Virus record (IMG/VR): IMGVR_UViG_3300027881_000007
Span: 32,001 to 96,000 of that record
From: a virus
DNA length: 64,000 nt
Strand: one strand, 5' to 3'
In this document: positions 1-15,673 of the stretch, piece after piece
Layout: each line of letters opens with the position of its first letter
How positions within the stretch are numbered: position 1 is the stretch's first letter
Made by a program: the position numbers and the translations under genes
The notes under the pieces: generated by a model
Told to the model about the DNA's origin: nothing
Database searches by the model: none
The model's input: the letters and a program-made list of their open reading frames with translations, nothing else

Positions 1-540
1 TGATCTAGTTGACTTCCCTCTAAATACTAATTCGCCTGGACCCAACGGATCTCCAGGCACAGTATACTGTACATCATACTCAACAATATCAATATCAGCT
101 AAACCATAGTATGCTAAGACCTGATAAAGAGCATTGGGAGTCCCCTTGACTTTATACAAGTTGACAAGATCAAAGAAAAAGTTAACTTTAGTTGTGAAGG
201 TTAGTATGTCCACTGGGACATCATAACCAAATGATTGAATCAACTGCTGAACGTGAGTATCAGGCATGGGAAATACTTCAGACACTGAGGCCTCAGTTGT
301 TCCCACAGTCCTAAGTGTAGCATACCAGTCTATAAGGAAGGTGCGTAGTCGTTTGTAATCATCAGAATTGAAGACTGCTTGATCAAGGGTGTTCTCAAAT
401 AGTTGCTCCGATAAACCCCTCTCAGATTCAGCTATATTTTTCGTATTATTGTCAAGTTCAATCGTATCAAAGGTAGGATCTATCCTTCTCTGATAGAGAA
501 AATTCCATATTGTCCAATAGTCTTCAATTTTGAATGCCAT
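1..540 (-). CDS. Baseplate wedge/tail-like structural protein, partial (runs off left end)
   Basis: Manual translation from ATG at 540: MAFKIEDYWTIWNFLYQRRIDPTF...FFFDLVNLYKVKGTPNALYQVLAYYG. The LYKxKGT motif is typical of baseplate wedge (P2 gpI/T4 gp7-like) proteins. No stop before base 1. Confidence 0.6.
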   Translation of the reverse strand, partial: MAFKIEDYWTIWNFLYQRRIDPTFDTIELDNNTKNIAESERGLSEQLFENTLDQAVFNSDDYKRLRTFLIDWYATLRTVGTTEASVSEVFPMPDTHVQQLIQSFGYDVPVDILTFTTKVNFFFDLVNLYKVKGTPNALYQVLAYYGLADIDIVEYDVQYTVPGDPLGPGELVFRGKSTRS

Positions 541-542
541 AC

Positions 543-1202
543 TTATACAATCTCCTCACACGGAGGTATAGGAATCACCTCTCTAGCAGCCACAAAGTCG
601 AAATACAGTTCAATTACAAAGGCCTCATAACAACTTTGTAAGACTTCAAATGGTTGAGAGATAAGAGTTGTAGTATCATAGACTGAAGTGTCCTCATCAA
701 TCTTCAACTTCAAGTACACCCATATCAACTTTGATAAATCAGTACTTAGAGCATCTAGTGAGGCATACAAAGTTATTGACGCAGTTGAATCAACTAGAAC
801 TACTGAGGTTGAATCAACCAAATTAACTCTAGTTGGGTCAATGCGATATGCCAGTAGAGTATTTAGTAGGGTAAAATCATCTGGTTGGAGATGAAATAGA
901 TTAAATGCATTAGTGCTGTCACATACTTCATACACCTTGGCGGAAGCATATACCGTTATTCTCTCCCTTACCATAGCTGGCCACTTAGACTTACTCTCTA
1001 TATCTTGGAAAAGATATTCATACTCAGTAAATGGATATGATTCATCGAACAGGAGTTGAATGAATGATTTTGGTTTTAGAAAGAGAGTGGGAATTTCAAC
1101 AGGATAAGGTATCTTATCTTTATTGAGATTCCTGTAAACGACTGCCCTACTAAACCAATATTGTAATTCATTTACTAAACTTGTGGAAAATGGTAACGTC
1201 AT
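543..1202 (-). CDS. Hypothetical protein, probably structural
   Basis: 219-aa ORF tightly coupled to its neighbours, upstream of the baseplate-like gene. Confidence 0.6.
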   Translation of the reverse strand: MTLPFSTSLVNELQYWFSRAVVYRNLNKDKIPYPVEIPTLFLKPKSFIQLLFDESYPFTEYEYLFQDIESKSKWPAMVRERITVYASAKVYEVCDSTNAFNLFHLQPDDFTLLNTLLAYRIDPTRVNLVDSTSVVLVDSTASITLYASLDALSTDLSKLIWVYLKLKIDEDTSVYDTTTLISQPFEVLQSCYEAFVIELYFDFVAAREVIPIPPCEEIV

Positions 1203-1891
1203 TAAGACTCCTCTTTCGAAATGAAAGAACTAAGTACCATGTAAATATGTCCTTCAAACTCGTGTGGATCCATACCTAATTCATCAGCAAAGGCATGTAC
1301 TTGTTTATCCGAAGGATTTGGATTGGCTTTAAAGAATTTTATAATTTTTGCATGAATGTCTCCACTATCTTCTTGTTCATGCACTGGTTCAGCAGCCTCA
1401 GCTTCAGCTTTAGTTGTCTGTACAGTTCCAGACGGATGATTTGGGGGAGAATAGACTGAATAAAGTTTCAAGTCATCTTCATCCGAGATATTAATAACAT
1501 TGTGTTTAGTTCCAGCTGGTATAACAAATGCTGAACCATCTTCTATTAATATCTCCTTTCCATTTAGGACTACTTTACCTTTTCCTGCTTCAATCCTAAT
1601 AAATTGATCAACATTGGAATGATTCTCTTCTCCAATATCTTCACTAGGCCGAATGCTCATCAATACTAACTGAGATTTTGTAGCAGTATAAAGAACCTTA
1701 CGAAAATTCTTATTTGCTATCGTTTCCTTTTCAATATTAATAAGAAACCCATCAGGAGCTTTATAAATATCAACTTCGTGAGCAGCTTGCTCATACATCT
1801 CACGGATGCATTTTTTCTTAATGGGTCACCACCTCATCCCGGGCGGACAATCTTTCTTCTCAGATAAGTGTTTCAGGTAACTGTCGATCAT
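1202..1891 (-). CDS. Cupin-domain protein with N-terminal targeting-like peptide and in-frame UGA at 1826-1828 (candidate selenocysteine)
   Basis: Cupin motifs IGEENHSNVDQFIRIEAGKG and VIPAGTKHNVIN. A GGAGG RBS precedes ATG at 1891, which is in frame with ORF 1202..1798 and reads MIDSYLKHLSEKKDCPPGMRW*PIKKKCIREMYEQ. Confidence 0.75.
1793..1811 (-). promoter_or_regulatory. Candidate bacterial SECIS-like hairpin
   Basis: AUGCAUC-CGUGA-GAUGUAU, 7-bp stem, starting 14 nt after the UGA. Confidence 0.55.
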
Positions 1892-1897
1892 TTTAAA

Positions 1898-3070
1898 CTA
1901 CCTCCTAAACTTAATATTTGGTAGAGGGTACCATGGATGCATTGGTGTATATACTTTAGGTTCAACATCAACTTCAGTTTCACTCTCCTCTTCCGTTTCA
2001 ACATCAACTATGTGCTGTTTGGCATCTCTTTCAGTTGTAAATTCAATTGAAAGTTTGCTCAGTACATGGGTAATAGGATTTGATAGTGTAGTATTATCTG
2101 AACCTGCAAATAGCAACCCTACAGCATTGTTATCCATATCCAATACTAGGGAGCCAGAGTCTCCACCATCACTCATGGGACCAGACATTATTTGGTCTTC
2201 AAATAGAGCAATAGGTCCACCATAATTAACCTGTGCTGTTACGTGGAGTTGAATGACTACACCTTGAGTATATCCAGTTGTTCGACCACTTTTCTGAATT
2301 GGTGTTCCAAGAGTTGGTTCAGATACTCCCTTGACATAACCAATTTCAAGTATCATCAACTCCATATCTTCAAACTTAATTGGGGTAGCTATGGCACAAT
2401 CGACTAGATTAGGATCACCCGGTTCAGCTTCCTTAGATAGAGAGAACTTATGACTTGAACCAAGTAGTTGTCCTATCTTATTGAGTACCTTCTCAATAGA
2501 ACCAGCTATAGGACATATAGGTACTGTATCACCAGAGAAGGAGATGGGCACATAGTCGAGTAGACTAGCTACGGTGTCTTCTTCACGGCCACCATCAATT
2601 CTCCCTGGTTGAAATATGGCATCACCTATGGCAGCTTCATTCGAGTTAGCGAACACGTGATTATTACTCAATAGGAGAATATCATCTCCACGCTTAACAA
2701 ACGCACCAAGAGTTCCTGCAGTTATATCTTTATGTCCCATAGATACACCAGCGGGATATGGCCTCCACCAATCACTTCGTTCTTTTAACGCAACAAATTC
2801 TCCTGTCTCAGTAACATCTGTCTTCGTGCCATCACCTACTGTCTGTGGTATCACATCCTTAGCCGGCAACTTCTCAATAGGGAGTTTCTGCTTAACAGAC
2901 ACAACAACACAAACCTCACTTGTAGCTACTCCGGCCACAGTTTTTAAACCAACTCCCACCGCCACCACGTTGGCCTTCTTAAGAAGATCTTTCTTACTCT
3001 CATTCACAACGTTTCTGACAATCTCTATGGTACTCATGAGATACTCCTTAATTTCAAAGTAGTCTGTCAT
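1898..3070 (-). CDS. Trypsin-like (S1/Nal1-type) serine protease
   Basis: Catalytic triad motifs LSNNHVFA, VDCAIA and GGDSGSLV; also KSGRTTG. Confidence 0.9.
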   Translation of the reverse strand: MTDYFEIKEYLMSTIEIVRNVVNESKKDLLKKANVVAVGVGLKTVAGVATSEVCVVVSVKQKLPIEKLPAKDVIPQTVGDGTKTDVTETGEFVALKERSDWWRPYPAGVSMGHKDITAGTLGAFVKRGDDILLLSNNHVFANSNEAAIGDAIFQPGRIDGGREEDTVASLLDYVPISFSGDTVPICPIAGSIEKVLNKIGQLLGSSHKFSLSKEAEPGDPNLVDCAIATPIKFEDMELMILEIGYVKGVSEPTLGTPIQKSGRTTGYTQGVVIQLHVTAQVNYGGPIALFEDQIMSGPMSDGGDSGSLVLDMDNNAVGLLFAGSDNTTLSNPITHVLSKLSIEFTTERDAKQHIVDVETEEESETEVDVEPKVYTPMHPWYPLPNIKFRR

Positions 3071-3073
3071 ACA

Positions 3074-3517
3074 TTAAAGAAGAATTTTCGACCAACGAGA
3101 TTCCTCAAATCTTTGCTCAAGGGACGCCTTCGCTTCATCACCATCTGGCGACTTAAGCTCCCCATCCATAATAAGAGACATAAGTTCATGCAGGTCAGCC
3201 TCTCCGATGTTCTTGATAAAGTCCTCTTTAGCAGATTCTGGTATTTTCTCCGATTCTTTGACTACCTCACTAATATATATCCTAAGACTTTCTGTCTTCA
3301 ACTCCTCCACCTTTTTATCATTATAAGCCCTACTTGAATCATCTTCATATTCTGAATCTTCTCCAGTCATAGGATCTTTCTCAGGGGCACCAGCAGGTTC
3401 CCCAGGTGGAAGAGGTTCTTCTACTTCATCGGGATCAACCATCTCAACCATTTCCTGCTCATGTAGTATTTGTTGTTTCTCATCACCGTACAATTCCTCT
3501 AACTTTTTTGTTGGCAT
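3074..3517 (-). CDS. Acidic hypothetical protein, probably virion/prohead-associated
   Basis: 147 aa, E/D-rich, GAGG RBS. Confidence 0.6.
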   Translation of the reverse strand: MPTKKLEELYGDEKQQILHEQEMVEMVDPDEVEEPLPPGEPAGAPEKDPMTGEDSEYEDDSSRAYNDKKVEELKTESLRIYISEVVKESEKIPESAKEDFIKNIGEADLHELMSLIMDGELKSPDGDEAKASLEQRFEESRWSKILL

Positions 3518-3526
3518 ATCATCCTC

Positions 3527-3874
3527 CTAGAACCGAGTCATTTTTAGTTTTGCTTGAAGTTTAGAAATCTTATTAGTCAATTTTGCTTTACATGCCTCAG
3601 GATTCTTATCCTTTCCACACATACCCTTTCCTTTATTAAGAGCACCCATCTTTGCTTTAATCGCTTGTGCTTTGAACCTCTTTAGACACTTGGTCTTATC
3701 CAGACCAGTATAGTCTTTACACGTCCTAGCAGCCTTATCAAAAATAGCCTTATAGGACTTAGCTGCTAAACTAAGGGCCATTGGCACAACAAAGAGAGCA
3801 GTACTCACACCCGCTTCATCAAATACCTTATCTTCTTGTATAAATTGCAAATAGGCATCTAACCTCTCACTCAT
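3527..3874 (-). CDS. Putative virion internal protein, paralog of 10361..10867
   Basis: N-terminal YLQFIQE motif, hydrophobic stretch, 4-Cys Lys-rich C-terminal domain. Confidence 0.6.
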   Translation of the reverse strand: MSERLDAYLQFIQEDKVFDEAGVSTALFVVPMALSLAAKSYKAIFDKAARTCKDYTGLDKTKCLKRFKAQAIKAKMGALNKGKGMCGKDKNPEACKAKLTNKISKLQAKLKMTRF

Positions 3875-3883
3875 ATCATCCTC

Positions 3884-4474
3884 CTACGTAGACATCTTAA
3901 GTATGACAGCGAATAAACCCACAACACCAAGTAGTGCTATGGCTGTAAGTCCAACCTGTGCTAAAGGTGGAAAGAGAGTAGCTAAAAGAATAAATGCACC
4001 TATACCAAAACCATATGCAAAAGCTCCTTCACCAGCCATTGCCTGTTCACCAAGTTTAGCTTTTAATCGTTTCCTAACGCGGCCAAACTTAAGCAGCACT
4101 TCTTTAGTTTTCACATCTGGTTTATCTGAATGACTTGCGCCAAGAGCAATCATTGATGAGAGATATGAGAGAGCACTATCTGGAACATCTGGATATTTTG
4201 TTTCTAGTTGGTTCATAGACATCATATAGGACTGATCAAAACCTTTAGAGGATGCCCTTCTAGCAACCTTTTTAAACTTTTTAGATGAGATAACAGGTAC
4301 AAGGGTAATCGCTTTTTCTATGGTTTTAGCATCTCCTCTCACTATACCCTTCTTCATACCAAGCATTATCTTATCAAGTCTACCTTGTGTCATCTTCCTG
4401 ACAAAGGATGCTACATTCTCGGTGATAACATCAGACTCTTGTAACTCATTCATATACTTATCAATTATCCTCAT
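3884..4474 (-). CDS. Putative virion internal/membrane protein
   Basis: N-terminal YMNELQE motif; two C-terminal hydrophobic helices. Confidence 0.55.
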   Translation of the reverse strand: MRIIDKYMNELQESDVITENVASFVRKMTQGRLDKIMLGMKKGIVRGDAKTIEKAITLVPVISSKKFKKVARRASSKGFDQSYMMSMNQLETKYPDVPDSALSYLSSMIALGASHSDKPDVKTKEVLLKFGRVRKRLKAKLGEQAMAGEGAFAYGFGIGAFILLATLFPPLAQVGLTAIALLGVVGLFAVILKMST

Positions 4475-4536
4475 ATCCCTCTCCTAAATTAATCGAACTA
4501 TCCCTATTTTTAATTTGTTCCACATATTTGAAGTCA

Positions 4537-4926
4537 TCACTGGTCATATTTTGAGACAATCCAACACAGCCTCATCTGTAAAGTAATAGTAGTTAATGGT
4601 ACATTCCCATGCACATCTACAGGGTCCATAGCAGGGGCAAGTTCAGTCTTCCTTAACTCCTCTTCAATTTCCATAAACTCCATATATGCAGCAAGGTCCC
4701 CAACCTCAGGATCATCACCAAGTCTATATTTGTCTCCCTCTTGATGTCCTCTAGGTATAGCAAATATAATCTCGTGATACTCTTCCCTTGTAGGTAACAT
4801 CATATACTCTTCTAGAATAAACTCAGGATAATCACGATGTTCCTTCATCCACTTTTTCTTCTCCTCCAGTGACAGACCCTCCGGCATTTCCTCCAGTGAG
4901 GGCAAACTCCCCGTAAGATCGGTCAT
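4537..4926 (-). CDS. Hypothetical protein
   Basis: 129-aa ORF with AGGAG RBS. Confidence 0.6.
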   Translation of the reverse strand: MTDLTGSLPSLEEMPEGLSLEEKKKWMKEHRDYPEFILEEYMMLPTREEYHEIIFAIPRGHQEGDKYRLGDDPEVGDLAAYMEFMEIEEELRKTELAPAMDPVDVHGNVPLTTITLQMRLCWIVSKYDQ

Positions 4927-4939
4927 CTCGCTTCTCCTT

Positions 4940-5515
4940 CTATTCTACCTTCTCAGATATCACAGTCCATCCTTCTTTCTGTGTTTCATCATCAATATCA
5001 TCTGGTTCTACTGAAAACCAATCTCTTTTGTTAAACTTCAAACCTATCTGGTCTTGCCATGCCATAGCTATAAGAGAGGAGCACACAATACTATTCGACC
5101 TATTCAAGGTAGCCGTAAACCAATTAGTCCTAAACAGGTTGTCCCAAAACTGCCAAAATATAGTCACCAGACTAAACTTCTCTCCCAACTTACTATTTAG
5201 TCGTTCGGCAATACCTGCAGCATCTTCATCAGACAAATCATCTTTCCTCACAATCCTGTATGCTCTCTTGGCCATATACTTCTTGACCTGAAGCATATCT
5301 CGTTTGACAACTTTCATCTGTGCCTCTATCAACATATTAGGTGCTATCATACAAGACACGTGAGTAAACCTAGCAGGGTCTCCTCCTCCCCCATATTGAA
5401 TAAACTTAAGAAAGAAATTAGTAAACCAATTCTTCTTGGCACAAGTCATTATTATATCACCCGCCTTTAACTTGGGTACTTCAATCCCTGTAGATGACGA
5501 TTGTGATAAACCCAT
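4940..5515 (-). CDS. Permuted papain-like amidase (YiiX/YebB, C92 family)
   Basis: LKAGDII...FTHVS...IVCSSLIAMAW...VEPDDI, His-before-Cys order. Confidence 0.75.
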   Translation of the reverse strand: MGLSQSSSTGIEVPKLKAGDIIMTCAKKNWFTNFFLKFIQYGGGGDPARFTHVSCMIAPNMLIEAQMKVVKRDMLQVKKYMAKRAYRIVRKDDLSDEDAAGIAERLNSKLGEKFSLVTIFWQFWDNLFRTNWFTATLNRSNSIVCSSLIAMAWQDQIGLKFNKRDWFSVEPDDIDDETQKEGWTVISEKVE

Positions 5516-5516
5516 A

Positions 5517-6023
5517 TCATCCTCCTATAAATGTTACCTTCTCCTCTAGGTCTGGTTTATATAAACAGAAAGGTATCAACCAACGAAGATTATTTATCAT
5601 AGTAAACTTATTTAGTTCCCTTGTAGATATAATTGATACTCTCTCATCTGTTACAGTCTTAGCCTCATAGAAAGTATCATGCGGCAACTCAATAGAAAGG
5701 AAATACACCCTCCAACCACTACCTTGAATCGTAACCTTATGACGCCATACATATGGATTGGTTTCAATACCTACCTCTTCTTTAAACTCCCTAGATATAG
5801 CCTCATGCATACTTTCACCATTTTCAATATGTCCACCGGGGCCATTTAATGCACCCTTCTGCCAAGCAGGTCTTTGCTTCCTTACTAATATAACTCTCTC
5901 ACCATCTTCTCTAAAAGCAAAACCTACCACATATTCAGTCTTTCCAAATAGCTTTCCTTTCCTCTCAGATGTATTGAGCATGAAAATAGTATCCCTCCAT
6001 TTTAAAGTTAGGTGGATAGTCAA
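5517..6023 (-). CDS. NUDIX hydrolase
   Basis: Nudix box PGGHIENGESMHEAISREFKEEVGI; true start probably internal. Confidence 0.9.
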   Translation of the reverse strand: MTIHLTLKWRDTIFMLNTSERKGKLFGKTEYVVGFAFREDGERVILVRKQRPAWQKGALNGPGGHIENGESMHEAISREFKEEVGIETNPYVWRHKVTIQGSGWRVYFLSIELPHDTFYEAKTVTDERVSIISTRELNKFTMINNLRWLIPFCLYKPDLEEKVTFIGG

Positions 6024-14145: not shown

Positions 14146-14365
14146 CTTAACTCCTCCCCCTCCCCCTGTCCTCAATCCAATAAGGGGAATCCTCATCTAT
14201 ATTCAATAGTTTACCACAATGGTTACAGTATGCAGGGTACCCATCCATTACATAGGAAAATGTGTGCATACTCATACCTTTACATAGGGAGCAGACAAAT
14301 TTATCCAACCTCTCATAGTCTACAGCTTCTTTCAATTTTTCACCTCCCTCTCCTTAGAACAATCC

Positions 14366-14821
14366 TTAAATGGTCATCTCTATATTCATTACTGTATCAG
14401 GATGCAATATCATATCGTCTTTGTTTATATGCCAATAGTCTTTAGTAGTACCACCAAACTTACGGGACATACCATCCCAATCTGCAATCATCTGTTTAAC
14501 ATACTTCATTGGCATAGGTATGGGGATTATCTCGTCTTTCCTAGTTACACTGACCCAATAATTCCAGTGGTGTTTATTTCTCTTTTGATGCCTTAACCAA
14601 CCCAACTGAAAGTTCATATTGTGTTCGTCAGACTGTTTGTACTCCTCGGTGCGATTTGTCTCATTAAAAAACCTTGCATATGGAATAAACTCTGACGGCA
14701 GAAACTTTGATAAATCATGGGTTATGCCATGGATGAATTGCCTAGACTTGACACACTCTATAAATACATTCCATTTATGCTCACACACATACCAAAAGTA
14801 TCTCCAGTACATACTACTCAA
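14366..14821 (-). CDS. HD-like conserved phage protein (DUF5662-like)
   Basis: HKWNV...HDLSKFLPSEFIPYA...HQKRNKHHWNYW...MIADW. Confidence 0.7.
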   Translation of the reverse strand: MSSMYWRYFWYVCEHKWNVFIECVKSRQFIHGITHDLSKFLPSEFIPYARFFNETNRTEEYKQSDEHNMNFQLGWLRHQKRNKHHWNYWVSVTRKDEIIPIPMPMKYVKQMIADWDGMSRKFGGTTKDYWHINKDDMILHPDTVMNIEMTI

Positions 14822-15262: not shown

Positions 15263-15673
15263 TCATTGAGGTCCATACTTGGGTAATGTGATCCAGGGTT
15301 TTTTGTATTCAGTCTTGCTAAAACTAACCTTCTCTGAATAATAACCATTTGATTCACCTAACCATCTAATGGTCACAGAACCTATAATGGTTGACAACTT
15401 ATAGAATGTCCATGTAAAACTCTCACTACCATACTCCACAGAGTGGTCGTGCTTCTCATTACTAACAACCTCTTCGGCCAACAGTATGGGGTTACCAATT
15501 AAATCCTTTAAATCTCCAACAACATCCACGATGTTGACGGTTTCACATCAGTCTTTGGCATGATACATCTTATATATATCACCTTCTTCGGTGGTAAATG
15601 TCATCTCCGTACTGCCTACATTACCATTGATCTCCTTTATGATCTCATTTTTCATTTCTTCGAACCTTGCCAC
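15263..15673 (-). CDS. Conserved phage protein with in-frame UGA at 15548-15550 (candidate selenocysteine)
   Basis: GGAGG RBS then GTG at 15673 (or ATG at 15655), in frame with ORF 15263..15529: ...[35 protein letters not shown]...TWTFYKL...[12 protein letters not shown]. The family normally reads DCCE (recalled). Confidence 0.75.
15520..15536 (-). promoter_or_regulatory. Candidate bacterial SECIS-like hairpin
   Basis: CAACAUC-GUG-GAUGUUG, perfect 7-bp stem, 11 nt after the UGA. Confidence 0.6.

Follow-up and report, generated by a model that had tools for sequence, protein, structure and literature searches.

The minus-strand gene at positions 1202-1891 of the window, the 64,000-nucleotide stretch of DNA analysed here, encodes a phage cupin protein whose reading frame is crossed by a UGA codon at 1826-1828. 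This UGA is almost certainly translated, and the reading that the sequence comparisons favour, and probably the right one, is that it is decoded as selenocysteine (Sec) by way of the SelB protein of the host. The window corresponds to positions 32001-96000 of the 113-kb IMG/VR record IMGVR_UViG_3300027881_000007 (CheckV completeness 36%), which is a fragment of the genome of an uncultured marine jumbo phage; it has a G+C content of 40% and its genes are mostly oriented on the minus strand. In the proposed mechanism, ribosomes would start at the GGAGG-led ATG at 1891, decode the UGA at 1828-1826 as Sec and go on into the cupin, so that 1891-1202 (-) would be a single gene. A short hairpin, 14 nt downstream of the UGA, would act as a bacterial-type Sec insertion sequence (SECIS) and recruit the host SelB with Sec-tRNA(Sec). 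The product would contain a Y-L-x-x-L-x-E tag, a 14-residue C-x6-U-x5-C mini-module, the cupin and a helical C-terminal domain, and the mini-module would be a portable unit that related phages add to unrelated proteins, at either end or in the interior, and that brings its own hairpin in each case. This reading draws on the site-specific pattern of TGA, the hairpin, the Cys form of the module and a second gene of the DUF7448 family, all of which fit the bacterial SelB/SECIS mechanism. We infer the identity of the residue as Sec, the supply of the machinery by the host and a role of the module as a redox or metal-binding staple.

The cupin reading frame and the conservation of its TGA

The full open reading frame (ORF) contains 229 codons (1202-1891, -), the UGA being codon 22. 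From the ATG at 1891-1889 it shows MIDSYLKHLSEKKDCPPGMRW (21 codons, ending in C-P-P-G-M-R-W), the TGA at 1828-1826, PIKKKCIRE and a second ATG at 1798. From this ATG the same frame encodes a 198-aa cupin ending at the stop codon 1204-1202, and it is here, at Met32 of the full frame, that gene callers start the protein. The initial annotation had claimed that the first ATG has a GGAGG ribosome binding site in frame with the cupin ORF and that the cupin's own ATG lacks a strong one, and both claims hold on the minus strand: a Shine-Dalgarno sequence, AGGAGG (1901-1906, -), lies before the ATG at 1891-1889 with a 9-nt spacer, and at ATG 1798 there is no GGAGG-type site, only an abutting GTGAG. 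The AGGAGG at 1906-1901 falls within the end of the upstream protease gene, and an equivalent GGAGG is located ahead of the leader ATG in G001, a complete relative of 277 kb with terminal repeats. The TAG stop codon of the protease gene (1898-1900, -) is in frame with the leader in both phages; a variant from marine sediment has TAA instead, together with a 3-nt deletion in the spacer, which indicates that this codon behaves as a genuine stop.

G001 is syntenic with the window phage and shows a nucleotide identity of roughly 70-80% (~75%) to it. Its leader, M-M-E-S-Y-L-K-F-L-S-E-K-G-K-C-P-P-G-M-R-W, is followed by TGA, by P-V-R-K-K-C-I-R-E-M and by an intact frame into the cupin. Of the codons that differ between G001 and the window, 11 precede the TGA, six of them with synonymous changes, and five follow it, three with synonymous and two with conservative changes. 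The ratio of non-synonymous to synonymous changes (pN/pS) is 0.27 upstream of the TGA and 0.13 downstream, and both flanks are under purifying selection. The TGA is also retained in contigs of three independent sediment runs that belong to different studies, in which both leader differences are synonymous. Since the TGA is conserved and the changes in its two flanks are mostly silent in G001 and in the sediment contigs, it is not the end of a gene, and its conservation across the three sediment assemblies and G001 excludes the assembly error by which, according to the initial annotation, the proposal could have fallen.

The runs that contain the whole stretch are labelled seawater metagenome, and partial relatives are found in marine-sediment runs of other studies; there is no RNA dataset among the sequencing runs listed for this stretch. 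A megablast search of window positions 1-6000 against GenBank phages gave no match, and a scan of viral contigs for close relatives carrying the cupin protein found none. An alignment-based scan retrieved 80 phage cupin loci, and the leader is present only in the G001 lineage. A word-index protein search with residues 1-40 gave no candidate, and hence no further Cys forms from protein databases.

The leader contains the motif SYLKHLSE (1859-1882, -), of the form Y-L-x-x-L-x-E, whose counterpart in G001 is SYLKFLSE. As had been noticed from the sequence at the outset, other ORFs share it: Y-[LM]-x-x-[LI]-x-E is located at the start of five further ORFs, with ATGs at 3874, 4474, 9998, 22841 and 30193 (all -). 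Including the ORF at 1891, six ORFs open with M-x(2-5)-Y-[LM]-x-x-[LI]-x-E, where a rough chance expectation is ~0.1 among 238 ORFs. The motif may be a targeting or propeptide tag, and an N-terminal tag, being sensible only with a cargo behind it, fits read-through.

A portable module with its own hairpin

The UGA lies within a 14-codon mini-module, C-P-P-G-M-R-W-[UGA]-P-I-K-K-K-C (1808-1849, -), whose C-x6-U-x5-C spacing suggests a selenylsulfide or a metal staple. IMG/VR and Joint Genome Institute (JGI) metagenome contigs were scanned with degenerate DNA patterns in which the slot codon was left open (TGN or any codon). This search for CPxGxxW[C/U]PxxxxC in related phages shows 11 distinct sequences of the form C-P-[PE]-G-x-x-W-TGA-P-x-x-x-K-C, in seven unrelated phage protein contexts, and one Cys form. 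The first context is the N-terminus of the cupin, in this phage and in G001. The second is the interior of a small acidic-tailed protein (L113 and L120). Three contexts show the module at the C-terminus: a protein with a helical N-P-N-P domain and DUF5661 (L115 and L132), another N-P-N-P protein (L149) and an unrelated protein (L116). In the remaining two, a second unrelated protein (L119) and a third (L150 and L151), the module is N-terminal. After the TGA all four Pro codons are seen, both Cys codons are used at the end of the module and there is synonymous variation on both flanks; this variety of Pro and Cys codons indicates that selection acts on the protein and not on a DNA motif. In L150, L151 and L113 the bulk of the protein lies downstream of the TGA, with no nearby ATG. 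The UGA is thus kept in at least two different homologous sequences, with 11 TGA forms in the seven contexts in addition to G001 and the three sediment assemblies, and coding conservation continues in frame past it, as seen in the pN/pS of 0.13, the codon variety and the long bodies of L113, L150 and L151. Among 185,579 representative prokaryote genomes none showed the module; there were only two chance matches in non-coding frames.

Forms of the module without TGA are rarer (six sequences): one, L114 from a TARA ocean scaffold, shows Cys at the slot and five, L144-L148, show Asp or Asn. No form with TGG was found in the scans allowing any TGN or any codon. The L144-L148 proteins are 770-930 residues long and combine repeated DUF6582 domains with a two-cysteine hairpin, C-P-x-G-x-x-[WF]-[DN]-x-x-x-x-x-C-x-P-L, that is present in 6-10 copies (for example, L145 3130-5928). 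The TGA module appears to derive from this two-cysteine family. The whole six-Cys domain of CBM_14/peritrophin-A was not recovered: P0001 has no match to it, and the multi-module protein of L145 shows only partial CBM_14 matches (profile positions 28-46), with no stretch that passes alone.

A SECIS is a stem-loop directly downstream of the UGA, with a conserved G in the apical loop (PMC1976440). The cupin gene contains such a stem-loop with an apical G, the SECIS-like hairpin AUGCAUC-CGUGA-GAUGUAU (1811-1793, -), which has a 7-bp stem and the loop CGUGA, starts 14 nt past the UGA and has its loop beginning 21 nt past it. Its position and the CAUC..GUG..GAUG core that it shares with the hairpin at 15520 agree with what the initial annotation had described. 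The ATG at 1798 lies inside the 3' arm of the hairpin, where its partner is the CAU that the Cys and Ile codons form in the 5' arm. A compact hairpin was required to have at least 5 consecutive bp, with at most one G-U pair, and 3-7 loop nucleotides with a G at the first or second position; the loop had to begin 16-37 nt past the UGA. These limits are based on the consensus bacterial SECIS model of bSECISearch, reportedly that of Zhang and Gladyshev from 2005. Compact hairpins follow the TGA in six of the seven contexts, against a background of 11.9% (22,540 positions of these loci) and one of the six non-TGA forms, the other five of which have none; the binomial probability of six in seven at the background rate is ~2e-5. 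The remaining context, L113, misses a compact hairpin by one mismatch. Local folding energies give a Fisher p of 3e-4 over five contexts, and the Cys form L114 has a downstream fold of 0.0 kcal/mol, without any structure. The loops in the TGA contexts are CGUGA, GGU, CGGGUA, GUU, GUU, GGC and CGGGU. Between the window and G001 the pairing is preserved through two one-sided changes, and L150 and L151 differ by a compensatory change of C-G to U-A. The z-scores of the whole 63-nt folds are individually weak (-0.1 to -1.1), and significance is reached only in the local and comparative tests. The hairpin is associated with the TGA forms.

Decoding of the UGA and alternative explanations

A second gene of the window, on the minus strand at 15263-15658, contains an in-frame TGA (15550-15548) and matches the Pfam family DUF7448 end to end across it. 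The TGA takes the place of the first Cys of the family motif Y-H-x-Q-D-C-C-E, and among 14 aligned full-length homologues this site has Cys in 13 and Trp in one (P0127), perhaps because a TGA was translated there with code 4. The hairpin CAACAUC-GUG-GAUGUUG (15536-15520) has a perfect 7-bp stem with the loop GUG, 11 nt past the TGA, and it is with this hairpin that the cupin hairpin has its core in common. The DUF7448 gene of the window is called from a GTG downstream of the TGA, and in the seven nearest homologue clusters (76-81% identical) all called starts are just past the TGA site, the expected outcome if the stop is shared. DUF7448 is absent from G001 and from four other module-bearing records (G004-G007), and a viral scan found no close relatives. 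By its sequence, DUF7448 is the textbook Sec/Cys pair of this phage, which raises the odds that the host decodes UGA as Sec.

Outside these sites TGA is an ordinary stop codon. It terminates 20 of the 93 ORFs of at least 100 aa in the window, ATGA overlaps included, and G004-G007 likewise use it commonly as a stop. A genome-wide reassignment of TGA (tables 4 or 25) was rejected, since TGA is a frequent gene end. No further conserved in-frame TGA on the coding strand was found between the record of this phage and G001. In the genome-wide screen for stops with coding conservation on both flanks, antisense frames produced noise through their shared third positions, and an apparent TGA/TGT pair at 52111 was dropped, as it is the antisense of a 252-aa ORF. 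There is no tRNA with a UCA anticodon in the record of this phage, in the complete G001 or in G004-G007, so read-through by a suppressor tRNA encoded by the phage was discarded. G001 contains only four tRNAs (Pro, His, Cys and Trp), and at 78662-78817 its tRNA-Cys(GCA) adjoins its tRNA-Trp(CCA), both near-cognates of UGA.

The record of L119 (G005; partial, 86 kb), which carries a TGA module, shows 19 tRNAs and a transfer-messenger RNA (14299-14376 and 2980-3340), with one CUA (amber) anticodon, and TAG may be recoded in some of its genes.

The window also contains a tRNA-like small-RNA gene at 53279-53421 (+), with its own TATAAT box and an intrinsic terminator (53424-53461) and with a counterpart in G001 (220852-221087, -). 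The RNA has an acceptor stem of 9 bp, a T stem of 4 bp whose loop is TTCGATT and a D stem of 6 bp around four loop nucleotides, a geometry like that of tRNA-Sec, as well as a hairpin loop with a conserved CUA and an extra domain of ~67 nt backed by compensatory change. ARAGORN detects nothing in it, the Rfam tRNA-Sec model gives just 18 bits and no link to UGA decoding was found.

Several observations weigh against a decoding of the cupin UGA as Sec. The module patterns demanded P, K and C after the TGA, and the presence of these residues in the matches is partly by construction. A selenoprotein candidate is expected to have two or more Cys homologues and to show mostly TGA/Cys pairs (PMC1976440). 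The DUF7448 site agrees with this through its 13 Cys homologues, and the module slot has one Cys form against five with Asp or Asn. The initial annotation had placed the UGA in the middle Cys slot of the module, which L114 bears out and the other five non-TGA forms do not; the argument from the Cys slot is weakened, and the Asp and Asn forms imply that the slot is not a classic catalytic-Cys position. The phage genomes show no Sec machinery: tRNA-Sec and SelB were looked for and not found in the record of this phage and in the complete G001, nor was tRNA-Sec in the partial G004-G007 (where SelB was not searched); these searches gave only ordinary tRNAs, and selA and selD were not searched. The stems are short (5-8 bp), and in addition to the mismatch in L113 the hairpin of G001 is weak (p 0.16). 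Every TGA form stands in the UGA-C context, which is the leakiest one for ordinary read-through.

This context also favours the main rival, an ordinary programmed read-through without selenium, of the kind seen in the Qbeta A1 protein, in which a near-cognate tRNA, likely Trp or Cys, would read the UGA at low frequency to give W-W-P or W-C-P, perhaps helped by the hairpin. The adjacent tRNA-Trp(CCA) and tRNA-Cys(GCA) of G001 and the Trp of P0127 point in the same direction, and the best argument for it is that a slot which accepts Asp, Asn and Cys may have no need of a particular chemistry. It is nevertheless unlikely: the scans with an open slot gave no TGG form, the Trp of P0127 is possibly just a translated TGA, Trp is unlikely to work at the DUF7448 site, whose Cys is kept in 13 of 14 homologues, and apical loops with G at a SECIS-like distance suit the recruitment of SelB better than a generic roadblock. 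A different kind of decoding, in which a tRNA-Sec-like adaptor on SelB would insert Cys or another residue, has a model in the tRNA(ReC)-type systems of some anaerobes, and the tRNA-like RNA of the window, common to G001 and with its tRNA-Sec-like geometry, might take part in it. This explanation is highly improbable, given that the conserved triplet of the RNA is CUA and not UCA, that the place of this triplet in its loop differs by one base between the two phages, that neither ARAGORN nor the low Rfam score supports a tRNA-Sec and that the RNA was not found in G004-G007.

If the UGA were instead a true stop, the gene would encode a 21-residue leader peptide and the cupin would be made by re-initiation at ATG 1798, under translational coupling or leader-peptide control. 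An ATG is located 27 nt past the TGA in both the window and G001, and the closest homologues (P0002) are called from an ATG at that point. Such an arrangement is very unlikely, because the nine codons that separate the TGA from the ATG evolve under in-frame purifying selection, the P-x-x-x-K-C tail follows the TGA also in contexts without a downstream ATG, ATG 1798 is buried in a stem without a real ribosome binding site and a 21-residue product would leave a targeting-type tag without cargo. The chance of a sequencing or assembly error, or of a recently broken gene, is negligible; nothing speaks for it beyond the presence of a stop, and the identical TGA appears in independent assemblies and studies, in a ~75% relative and in six other gene contexts. 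The claim that the gene encodes a selenium-dependent protein fares well in part: the comparisons support read-through of the UGA, likely as Sec and directed by the hairpin, with less help from the Cys slot than had been supposed. In a more general form, that phages encode selenoproteins, some of them through a portable 14-residue C-x6-U-x5-C module with its own SECIS hairpin, that their synthesis depends on selenium and the Sec system of the host and that the selenol serves as a redox or metal staple, possibly in the virion, the proposal is somewhat favoured by the evidence.

Domains of the cupin protein and comparison with known systems

Behind the leader and the mini-module, the read-through ORF contains a Cupin_2 domain (1451-1663, -; Pfam PF07883, E 5e-15) at residues 77-147, which scores 55.4 bits against a cut-off of 27.2 and is above the gathering score. 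The AlphaFold2 (AF2) model shows the cupin beta-barrel with a predicted local distance difference test (pLDDT) value of ~95 and is also confident for the C-terminal helices; the leader and the module have ~60, which makes the model uninformative on the geometry of the Cys/Sec pair. The closest solved relative of the cupin body is BH2720 of Bacillus halodurans (PDB 2OA2, E 6e-31), which lacks the leader, the Cys/Sec module and the C-terminal helical domain. This last domain (1205-1363, -), F-F-K-x-N-P-N-P-S-D...H-I-Y in the alignment, has no Pfam name and is shuffled among relatives, with further copies at L002 5640-6068 and L132 1154-1666. Here it stands behind the cupin, many phage cupins have it in front, and G001 and L132 encode it separately, in a fusion with DUF5661. 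It is the helical-domain gene and not a cupin that carries the TGA module in L132 and L149.

If the Sec reading is true, phage gene callers would systematically truncate such genes, as they do with the cupin, from Met32, and DUF7448, from its GTG. The Sec trait of the host could limit phage host range and would offer a new marker by which to predict hosts in sediments. With 14 codons and a hairpin of ~20 nt, the mini-module would be the smallest Sec cassette in nature that is portable, of use for site-specific Sec tags, and its short, diverse SECIS hairpins would be a defined set for probing the requirements of SelB.

The prototype of a bacterial selenoprotein gene is fdhF of E. coli, with a SECIS inside the ORF that is read by SelB. 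The phage genes resemble bacterial selenoprotein genes in a UGA kept among homologues, coding past the UGA, a stem-loop with an apical G, a Cys-form homologue and the use of TGA otherwise as a stop. They differ from them in being encoded by phages for which no Sec machinery of their own was found, in a candidate Sec that lies in a portable 14-residue module and not in an enzyme active site, and in having short stems and non-TGA relatives that are mostly Asp or Asn forms. The DUF6582-linked two-cysteine modules of L144-L148 have the backbone motif and length in common with the TGA module, C-P-P-G-x-x-W-x-P-x-x-K-K-C, and a weak likeness to CBM_14/peritrophin-A, but lack TGA, have slot 8 occupied by Asp or Asn and form multi-copy arrays in place of single grafts.

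In phage Qbeta, the A1 protein arises when a UGA is read by tRNA-Trp. It is likewise a phage protein extended past a UGA, but there the inserted residue is irrelevant and the stop has no conserved motif, whereas here the UGA always stands at the same position of a conserved Cys module that many unrelated proteins contain. The capsid-targeting tags of the internal proteins of phage T4, cut by the prohead protease, end in L/I-x-E. The window phage resembles T4 in having a short N-terminal tag ending in L-x-E on several otherwise unrelated small proteins, a likeness which suggests that these proteins may be packaged in the virion; the difference is that the protease encoded next to the cupin is trypsin-like (phrog_20754) and not of the gp21 type. 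The literature searched contained no description of a selenoprotein for any bacterial virus, and the viral selenoproteins described there are the glutathione peroxidases of two poxviruses, molluscum contagiosum and fowlpox (PMC8310308). These are also UGA-Sec genes encoded by a virus that relies on the insertion machinery of its host (PMC8310308). They are, however, captured cellular genes with a eukaryotic SECIS, whereas the cupin gene belongs to a protein family with no known cellular selenoprotein counterpart, shows bacterial-type signals and is carried by a bacteriophage.

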